From Candidatus Thorarchaeota archaeon (GTDB taxonomy: Archaea; Asgardarchaeota; Thorarchaeia; Thorarchaeales; Thorarchaeaceae), in contig JBHLRP010000008.1 of assembly GCA_048882485.1 (NCBI GenBank), forward strand, positions 13,671 through 77,670: DNA of 64,000 nt, given 5' to 3'. Below are positions 62,371 through 64,000 of this stretch, in pieces; positions within the stretch are counted from its first letter, which is position 1, and the number at the start of each line of letters is the position of its first letter. Made by a program: the position numbers and the translations under genes. The notes beneath the pieces are model-generated. The model had not been told where the DNA came from. It worked only from the letters and a program-made list of their open reading frames with translations, and did no database searches.

Positions 62371-63210
62371 GTGAGTTCCATGACTCTAGATATTTACAAA
62401 CTGCGAAGCGAGTTCGGAGAACAGCATAGTCTTCTAACCACTTCTGATGGTGCCACTCTTTTCATTAGGAAGTGGGGACCTGAGGGTCCGCCCAAAAGCA
62501 CAGCTATACTCATTCTTCATGGAATTACCGCCTACAGTGGTCCCTATAGCGAGATTGCGACACCGCTCGCTTCAAGGGGCTTTGCGGTCTTCGGATTGGA
62601 CCTCCGAGGCCATGGTCTTTCTGACGGAAATAGAGGTGACACTCCCGGGAGAGAGAGATACGTGAAGGATCTCTGCGAAGCAATTGCATTCGTGAAGGAA
62701 CAGCATCCCAGCATTGTTATTCTAGGACATAGTCTCGGTGTTCTTTCGTCTATCCTAGCAATGAGTGCATGCATCAAGCAGATTGATGGTGCGATATTTC
62801 TCAGTGCGGCAAGAGATACACGGCCGGGCGTTTATCCCTCCATAGGTGGGGTTCAGAAGCTGAAGATTATTCTTAGCTCAATCTTCTTTCCAAGCAGGCC
62901 TGTTATGGAGTATCGTCGGGAAGGAATGGTAGGGCTGGATGATCCTTTATTTACATTCAGCTACACACTTCGTTTCATGAGAACAACAGTCTTGTCGGAC
63001 TTCAGCTTTCCTTCTGAGATGCCATTCCCTGTTCTCGTAGCTATTGGAAACGAGGACGAGCTATTTGCGGTCGATGCTGCTAGAGCCCTATTCGAGGAGA
63101 TACCGTCAAAGACCAAGGAGTTCCTAGTTGCTGAAGGTGCCAGGCACGCAGTTTTTCCAGAAGGCTGTTTGAATCCTATATTCGAATGGGCTGATTCCAC
63201 ATTCAAGTAG
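62371..63210 (+). CDS. alpha/beta hydrolase (lysophospholipase/Hydrolase_4-like)
   Basis: LHG, DLRGHG, GHSLG nucleophile, D..F and GARH motifs. Confidence 0.9.
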   Translation: MSSMTLDIYKLRSEFGEQHSLLTTSDGATLFIRKWGPEGPPKSTAILILHGITAYSGPYSEIATPLASRGFAVFGLDLRGHGLSDGNRGDTPGRERYVKDLCEAIAFVKEQHPSIVILGHSLGVLSSILAMSACIKQIDGAIFLSAARDTRPGVYPSIGGVQKLKIILSSIFFPSRPVMEYRREGMVGLDDPLFTFSYTLRFMRTTVLSDFSFPSEMPFPVLVAIGNEDELFAVDAARALFEEIPSKTKEFLVAEGARHAVFPEGCLNPIFEWADSTFK

Positions 63211-63820
63211 GTTGGAAGTTTCTCTTCTGGAATGTATTAATGACAAGCAAACCAACGAAGAGGAGCGAGCCAAAGACGGTGAACCACTCAATAAGTGGAC
63301 CACCAAAGAATATCTGAAAACCTAATGTTAGGAAGTCAATCGAAATCCCATAGACCGCAATCAGTTTCCAGAAATCTGAATTCAACACAAGTGCGAAGTT
63401 GACAATTAATAGCACAAAGAAGTTCAAGAGAAAGAAAGTTGAGGACGCCACCATATGAGATGCCCCCTGGTCCTCCGAAAACACTCCTATCAATATGAGA
63501 GCCACTGCAGAGCAGAGTCCAATAACTTGACCTATGATGAGAGGCACCTTTTGATACAGACGATCTGTATGCCATTGATAGAATCCGATGTAGAAAGGAA
63601 ACAGAGCGATACCTGTTAGAATGCAGCCAATATTGTAGAAATAGGCACCAAATGGGCTATAGTTGAAGTTTCCAAGACGACTAAGATAGTGTGTGGAGGG
63701 GCCGTAGCTCTCTGGATAGAATGCCCACGAAATTAGGGTGAAGACAATATATAATATGATTACCAGTACGCCGCCAATTATCAGTAGGGGCCACCTAAAT
63801 GAGAATCGCTGCATCAGCAA
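63203..63820 (-). CDS. DUF998 family membrane protein
   Basis: HYLSRLG, IGVF and H..EW motifs; about 6 TMs. Confidence 0.75.
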   Translation of the reverse strand: MLMQRFSFRWPLLIIGGVLVIILYIVFTLISWAFYPESYGPSTHYLSRLGNFNYSPFGAYFYNIGCILTGIALFPFYIGFYQWHTDRLYQKVPLIIGQVIGLCSAVALILIGVFSEDQGASHMVASSTFFLLNFFVLLIVNFALVLNSDFWKLIAVYGISIDFLTLGFQIFFGGPLIEWFTVFGSLLFVGLLVINTFQKRNFQPT

Positions 63821-63887
63821 AGCCTCTCAAGTGATTGTGTTCTTCTCCCTGTTAAGACTTCGGCAGAGCAAATGAAACTGGCTGCTA

Positions 63888-63966
63888 GTGACCGGCGGCG
63901 GATGAAGGCACGGCCGTAAACGAAACGGGCCGGGTCTGACACACCCCGCAAGGGTGCGTTGGTCGC
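63888..63966 (+). ncRNA. SECIS-like / K-turn-containing structured RNA
   Basis: AUGAA (63902), an 11-nt helix, AAA, then UGAC (63937), enclosed by a 10-bp stem with three G-U pairs on the plus strand; GNRA-type side hairpin; pyrimidine tract after. Confidence 0.55.
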
Positions 63967-64000
63967 ACCTCCTTCCATCCTTTCTCTTTTACTAAACATT

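Follow-up and report, generated by a model that had tools for sequence, protein, structure and literature searches.

The closest described relatives of the RNA analysed here are the lokiSECIS of Lokiarchaeota VhuU.1 (PMC4989117) and the type I eSECIS-like elements of Thorarchaeia (PMC11227280). Asgard type I eSECIS have a core of the form 5'-(A/G)UGA...(G/A)A-3', an upper stem of 7-15 bp in which two mismatches at most are tolerated, and leading adenines in an apical loop of 8-20 nt. The loop is reported to start with G[U/G]AAA in the SECIS of Thorarchaeia frhA and vhuU (PMC11227280). In Lokiarchaeota VhuU.1, the AUGA of the SECIS overlaps the vhuU stop codon (PMC4989117); vhuU is a roughly 50-codon selenopeptide gene of [NiFeSe] hydrogenase. 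A SECIS-shaped RNA may also lie away from a Sec codon. The abstract-level account of an Sbp2l target mRNA, which does not encode a selenoprotein, describes a SECIS-like element in eukaryotic translational control with a known binding protein (PMC10783607); the copy described below resembles it in its position away from a Sec codon, and is known from sequence alone. A literature search found no description of orphan or duplicated SECIS copies in Asgard archaea. The present analysis adds an ectopic copy, the anatomy of its insertion, and checks by an independent model and an independent sample.

The DNA analysed, referred to as the window, is a stretch of 64,000 nt from a Candidatus Thorarchaeota archaeon genome (G000) in which tRNA-Sec is present. 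The window corresponds to C8:13671-77670, and its end coincides with the end of contig C8 at 77,670 nt, 10 nt past the repeat that contains the element. The features are as follows.

62371-63210, plus strand: nearest plus-strand gene, an alpha/beta hydrolase, ending TAA/TAG.
63206-63814, minus strand: neighbour gene, a 203-aa membrane protein without a Pfam family; ancestral, its orthologues not followed by the element.
63840-63868, no strand assigned: ancestral intergenic motif including TTAAGA, conserved in G005, G009 and G011, all of which are without the element.
63869-63893, plus strand: left junction of the insertion; homology ends near 63868 with G005 and near 63888 with G011.
63884-63990, plus strand: complete repeat unit; the three-way junction of the vhuU SECIS in a displaced copy, with its pyrimidine tract.
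63888-63897, plus strand: 5' strand of the closing stem P1, pairing with 63957-63966 (10 pairs, three of them G-U).
63902-63905, plus strand: AUGA, 5' side of the SECIS (K-turn) core.
63906-63915 with 63928-63937, plus strand: P2, 10 positions including one A.G mismatch.
63916-63927, plus strand: apical loop GUAAACGAAACG, 12 nt, starting GUAAA.
63938-63939, plus strand: GA, the same in all four copies of this genome; 3' side of the SECIS core.
63942-63956, plus strand: P3 hairpin CACCC/GGGUG, arms 63942-63946 with 63952-63956.
63957-63990, plus strand: 3' strand of P1 and pyrimidine tract, the most repeated core, common to all full and partial copies.
63992-64000, minus strand: probable 3' end of a convergent TPR cargo gene, its putative stop TAG being the complement of 63992-63994.

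An earlier note on this DNA, made from the letters alone, had described a eukaryote-type SECIS-like RNA on the plus strand, and all of its coordinates proved correct when the sequence was rechecked. These comprise AUGAA at 63902-06, the 5' arm of the helix at 63907-17, AAA at 63918-20, UGAC at 63937-40, the closing stem 63888-97/63957-66 with three G-U/U-G pairs, the hairpin 63942-46/63952-56, the pyrimidine tract at 63967-90 and TTAAGA at 63852-57. The minimum-free-energy structure returned by RNAfold is the same three-way junction. Its fold energy is not better than that of shuffled sequence (z = 0.06), so thermodynamics alone is uninformative on the element, and the motif taken alone, before comparison with homologues, would be unconvincing. 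Set against the type I form outlined above, AUGA 63902-05 and GA 63938-39 supply the core, the upper stem has 10 positions with one A.G mismatch, and the 12-nt loop carries the leading adenines, its GUAAA start agreeing with the Thorarchaeia elements. The window copy therefore shares the AUGA...GA core, the upper helix and the A-rich loop with lokiSECIS and the Thorarchaeia elements (PMC4989117; PMC11227280), whereas it has no vhuU or other UGA gene upstream. Helix and loop measure 10 bp and 11-12 nt in the Thorarchaeota vhuU family, compared with 9 bp and 11 nt in the Lokiarchaeota example (PMC4989117). Furthermore, the structure here is a covarying three-way junction, with a 10-bp P1 and a P3 of 4-5 bp after the GA, while the models in the consulted portions of both reports comprise core, upper stem and loop (PMC4989117; PMC11227280).

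The window copy is 76-85% identical over a 106-nt stretch to three full copies on contig C46 of the same genome, and the 3' part of the element also occurs as a single fragment on C107. For the 63957-63990 core, nhmmer found five copies in this genome. A search with a covariance model of the four copies of this genome recovered full-length elements from 26 of the 36 genomes searched within the family and from none of the 24 that represent other families of the phylum; weak covariance-model matches at C14 and C33 were discarded as short, chance-level hits to the pyrimidine tract only. Across 61 genomes, 33 of the 48 meaningful matches come immediately after a vhuU gene, the AUGA core supplying the stop codon of that gene. 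The pyrimidine-tract motif is not a common genomic signal, given that its 14-15-nt core occurs outside the repeats only at C3, C14 and C77.

The helices were assessed in an alignment of 29 vhuU-linked SECIS elements, all from other genomes (A5). Pairing holds in 91% of the cells of this alignment, and both partners vary in 15 of the 24 pairs; none of 500 shuffles matched the covariation, and slid registers came nowhere near it. Both-sided changes were seen in six of the ten P1 pairs (92% of cells paired) and in seven of the ten P2 pairs, and 97% of cells are paired in P3, where the basal pair varies between A-U, G-C and C-G in 12 sequences. Thus, all three helices are supported. A model built only from these 29 vhuU-linked elements, with any copy from this genome or from the relative G015 left out (R2), scored the window copy at 88.6 bits (E 6.5e-23) as the sole match in the 64-kb window. 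In addition, the window copy is 100% identical over 107 nt to G015:C18:1498-1599, which lies directly 3' of the G015 vhuU. The element is thus homologous to the SECIS of confirmed selenoprotein genes, and the earlier reading of it as a eukaryote-type Asgard SECIS holds, as does the choice of the plus strand as the strand on which it evolved. By descent and by structure, the window element is a member of the Asgard vhuU SECIS family.

Generic models were less responsive. No Rfam family reached its gathering threshold in the 64-kb window, and the eukaryotic SECIS_1 model (RF00031) gave 14 bits (E 8.4) against a threshold of 35 bits. A poor score with a eukaryotic SECIS model had been named in the earlier note as grounds for abandoning the SECIS reading; the score is indeed poor, but it refutes nothing, because SECISearch3, a eukaryotic tool, is likewise reported to have given no significant results on Asgard selenoprotein genes (PMC11227280). 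The idea of another K-turn ncRNA was not borne out, as curated C/D-box and H/ACA sRNA models produced only sub-threshold matches outside the element (SNORD95, 14.6 bits; sR35, 11.3 bits).

The window locus is unrelated to vhu, and no same-strand Sec-UGA gene ends at or just before the element there. This agrees with the earlier observation that no plus-strand selenoprotein gene lies upstream, since 62371-63210 is free of in-frame UGA codons and 63206-63814 reads from the minus strand. No vhuU coding remnant precedes the window copy, whose homology begins at 63884. The element is absent from the orthologous locus in G005 (flank 93% identical), G015, G009, G011 and G004, and from the same locus in eight further database contig records of relatives. 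After removal of overlap these five genomes and eight records amount to 12 distinct genomes; L071, whose M14-like protein is identical to that of the G005 locus, appears to be the G005 locus itself. TTAAGA had been put forward as a weak promoter of the element's own, but relatives without the element keep the motif around it, and TTAAGA was therefore not brought in with the element. The intergenic motif ..CTTAAGACYTCGGCAG.. upstream of the membrane-protein gene is conserved in G000, G005, G009 and G011, and this region is probably the promoter or leader of the membrane-protein gene.

The left junction is real and not an artefact. One run of an independent study yields a 3922-nt contig that matches 63500-63975 without a difference. 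The Logan contig of the source run itself takes in all of 63500-64000 and extends another 26 nt. Exact-match scans of metagenome and genome contig collections for the C8-specific junction returned no match. CTAG at 63885-88 is common to the first bases of the element and the ancestral intergenic sequence. A GACTAGGGC-like site is found again at the right junction on C107, and the CTAG-containing sequence of the ancestral spacer is present at both junctions, pointing to either joining by microhomology or a short duplication of the target. A 61-codon minus-strand ORF (63814-63999) runs antisense through the whole element and is open to the contig end; it is probably spurious. An RNA contig (X8) was rejected as evidence for the orphan copy, as the identical element there follows the 3' end of vhuU; this contig may include DNA. 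Other runs with only a small share of matching words were kept out of the evidence.

The parent arrangement is preserved on C46, where the first copy is preceded by two [NiFe] hydrogenase genes, one for the small subunit and one for a large subunit without its C-terminus. After these genes comes a short ORF (...RCYDC-U-LSCGAH...), the stop of which is the UGA of the first copy's AUGA core; this is the VhuU arrangement as in Lokiarchaeota (PMC4989117). The order on C46 is vhuU, E1, an alpha/beta hydrolase gene (antisense), E2, an 809-aa Zn-metalloprotease-like gene, E3 and an S8-peptidase-like gene. G005 has vhuU, Ea, metalloprotease, Eb, hydrolase, Ec and peptidase in this order, with the two middle cassettes swapped relative to C46. 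Ea matches E2 exactly and Ec is almost the same as E3; Eb, a mosaic of two types, has lost its AUGA. The repeat is about 100-140 nt long and comprises the last codons of vhuU, the SECIS and the pyrimidine tract. A vhuU coding remnant of 30-45 nt is kept in the orphan copies on C46, and spare copies behind vhuU are also found in G015, G009, G016 and G023. Crossovers at differing points inside the repeats fit homologous recombination better than one fixed cut site, and no recombinase was found among six neighbouring or cargo proteins scanned. The earlier note had set identification as a multicopy mobile-element end against the SECIS reading. The repeat comes close to such an end in that its units bound shuffled cassettes.

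The vhuU arrays may be compared with the 3'-end displacement arrays of rhs, CDI and T6SS loci and with tandem accretion at tRNA-gene att sites, in that spare copies of a gene end stand behind the intact one with cargo between them, and partial copies have the 3' boundary in common. They differ in that the duplicated 'end' is mostly a non-coding RNA signal and that the studied copy has left the parent locus; furthermore, neither toxin-immunity logic nor an integrase is seen here. Compared with the C46 array and its G005 counterpart, the C8 copy belongs to the same repeat family, with single-gene cargo in either orientation and the same peptidase leader after the repeat, but it lies at an unrelated locus, has no vhuU remnant and is of the G015 sequence type, not that of its own genome.

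Several observations were made in passing on these arrays. The 809-aa Zn-metalloprotease-like gene (G000:C46:18759-21185, minus strand) takes its last codons and stop from the vhuU remnant of E3, read in another frame. Behind the vhuU of G015 (L012:633-1599, minus strand; G015:C18), a 50-aa ORF and a DUF6036/AbiEii-like nucleotidyltransferase gene form a toxin-antitoxin-like pair bracketed by one intact and one decayed repeat copy. In another genus, an ectopic partial copy (L036:1501-1592, minus strand; G020:C18) is fused to the 3' end of a membrane-protein gene; its 3' half is nearly identical to that of the window copy, and its left junction is a loose end in two metagenome runs.

What lies beyond the end of C8 is indicated by synteny and by reads. 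In three relatives the membrane-protein gene directly adjoins an M14-type peptidase-like gene, the orthologue of which in this genome is at C107:4072-5175 (96% amino-acid identity to that of G005). Past this gene, C107 has a stretch of about 50 nt with homology to the S8-peptidase leader of vhu arrays, a partial repeat copy consisting of the 3' 42 nt (C107:5296-5255), and a TPR gene cut short by the contig end on the side facing C8. C8 and C107 are probably linked, the gap between them in the assembly being about 475 nt as estimated from the contig of another sample. The read continuation past 63999 is a minus-strand frame with a TAG stop at 63994-92, and the independent sample continues for about 909 nt past the window end before another copy of the 3' part of the repeat. 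The 3' end assigned to the TPR gene is based on this continuation, on the C107 TPR gene and on frame arithmetic with the other sample's spacer. From C107:5366 to the TAG, the TPR ORF would be 849 nt (283 codons) if that spacer length holds, a weak estimate; the second repeat copy of that sample differs from the one on C107, which weakens both the length arithmetic and the gap estimate. A close orthologue of the TPR cargo gene was not found in 40 family genomes, where generic TPR matches reached only 29-46% identity. Two candidates for this region were rejected. The G015 cassette (small ORF and DUF6036/AbiEii-like nucleotidyltransferase) was considered as filler of the C8 gap and is absent from this genome, and frame arithmetic, itself resting on the other sample's spacer length, is against the 61-codon ORF being a C-terminal extension of the TPR protein. 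In metagenome runs at least four different sequences follow 63989/90, and contig depth, when summed over 63959-75, exceeds the flank by a factor of 3-4. The several continuations and the raised depth indicate that the 3' part is a repeat junction common to several cassettes.

Taken together, the window element is likely to be a displaced, recent and probably inert copy of a vhuU SECIS, a recombination relic that came with an ectopic fragment of a vhuU cassette array. Repeat copies bracket single accessory genes behind vhuU, and in this model recombination between the copies shuffles the cassettes. An array fragment of roughly 1.1-1.2 kb would have been inserted between the membrane-protein gene at the end of C8 and the M14-type peptidase-like gene on C107, bringing one complete SECIS unit, the TPR gene in antisense orientation, a 3' portion of the following unit and some 50 nt of S8-peptidase leader, with insertion junctions that would share CTAG-type microhomology. 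The homology, structure and copy number of the element and its absence from the relatives' orthologous locus are direct observations, and this absence, together with the partial copy and TPR gene adjoining on C107, argues for an insertion in this genome.

The flanking orthologous DNA of G015 is only 74% identical to that of the window. The complete identity of the SECIS against this flank points to a recent arrival from a G015-like lineage, in the vhu array of which the fragment probably originated, and suggests that modules move between lineages. Recency also explains why the element is intact, so intactness is uninformative on function. The orphan copies range from 102 down to 20 bits under R2, and AUGA is missing in G005 Eb and in G009 L051. 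Some orphans are thus intact while others lack AUGA or half of the structure, which argues against consistent selection on them, and the window copy probably has no function at its present site. Against its reading as a relic, the window copy is perfectly intact, and several other orphan copies in the genus are intact too.

A dedicated att-like recombination site, embodied in the repeat unit and especially in its 3' part, with a functional C8 copy seeding a new array, would account for the swapped cassette order between G000 and G005 with elements at every junction. It would also suit the partial copies, which start at 63884, 63933, 63949 and 63954 yet end alike at the 3' side, as well as the multiple sequences that follow the repeat in metagenome runs and the near-identical 3' part in G020. 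However, the crossover positions vary and the elements are mosaic, as in general homologous recombination, the neighbouring genes examined include no recombinase, and the C8 junction resembles a join by microhomology that falls beyond the core of the repeat; such a site is therefore considered unlikely. A more far-reaching proposal is that the unit of vhuU tail and SECIS is a cassette-exchange handle able to move away from the hydrogenase locus and seed new arrays in Thorarchaeota, or that the intact orphans, among them the window copy and the conserved junction behind cysS in relatives, are retained as protein-binding K-turn RNAs tuning the selenocysteine machinery; this is regarded as improbable.

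The earlier note had also raised a stand-alone, trans-acting or decoy RNA, and this function found no support. Such an RNA could be a decoy or sink for EFSec, L7Ae or an SBP2-like protein or, as antisense within the 3' UTR of the TPR mRNA, a partner of vhuU SECIS RNA or a terminator or insulator. The intact SECIS core features, the tRNA-Sec in the genome and the cysS-linked SECIS-like junctions of relatives, almost invariant across two genera with no Sec gene, are compatible with it. But the element is missing from the orthologous locus in 12 relatives, orphan copies elsewhere decay, and there is no promoter of its own, TTAAGA being ancestral. Moreover, identity to this genome's own vhuU SECIS is only 85%, so antisense pairing would be poor, and a stand-alone role is judged decidedly unlikely. 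An active cis-acting SECIS located 5' of a plus-strand selenoprotein gene past the contig end, another suggestion of the earlier note, draws on the fact that the window stops 10 nt after the repeat, which leaves any downstream gene outside. It is very improbable, given that the read continuation and the syntenic C107 indicate a convergent minus-strand TPR gene, that the independent sample reaches a further copy of the repeat's 3' part, and that no copy among the 33 linked to vhuU precedes its gene. Almost no weight is given to an assembly chimera in which the last 117 nt of C8 stem from a co-occurring G015-like strain: the position at a contig end, the full identity to another species' SECIS and an estimated bin contamination of 5.8% would suit it, but the independent-study contig bridges the junction without differences, the source-run contig spans it, the 10 nt after the repeat differ from G015, and the right junction on C107 matches.

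An intact, high-scoring Asgard SECIS can accordingly occur without a selenoprotein gene, so that SECIS-first searches for selenoproteins in these genomes will yield false leads, and repeat status is worth checking when orphan SECIS matches are annotated. The C8 copy adds an ectopic site to a form of cassette shuffling that is tied to the RNA signal of a selenoprotein gene. In addition, the covarying three-way junction around the Thorarchaeota SECIS core may help in building better SECIS models.

SECIS-like junctions of other kinds were noted in the relatives. FdhA is a known selenoprotein family. The same three-way junction at L052:1501-1600 (minus strand; G011:C96) follows an fdhA C-terminus and an FrhB/FdhB-like gene, and its candidacy as an ectopic orphan was rejected because of this position behind fdhA-fdhB, FdhA being a selenoprotein. 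This junction probably belongs to a formate dehydrogenase operon as its SECIS, in a position behind the second gene that has also been described for HdrA-VhuD pairs. A further junction, which has AUGA, an AAA loop, GA, P1 and P3, is found about 40 nt past the stop codon of the cysteinyl-tRNA synthetase gene cysS in four relatives from two genera and is almost invariant among them (L045:1501-1595 in G006; L044:1501-1595 in G004; L048:1501-1592, minus strand, in G018; L035:67-158 in G010). It is absent behind this genome's own cysS (C1:110275-111714). The cysS genes have no in-frame UGA, and nothing obvious as a Sec gene was seen within 4 kb upstream in G018. A conserved SECIS-like junction 3' of cysS with no Sec gene implies that such RNAs may have uses beyond cis recoding.
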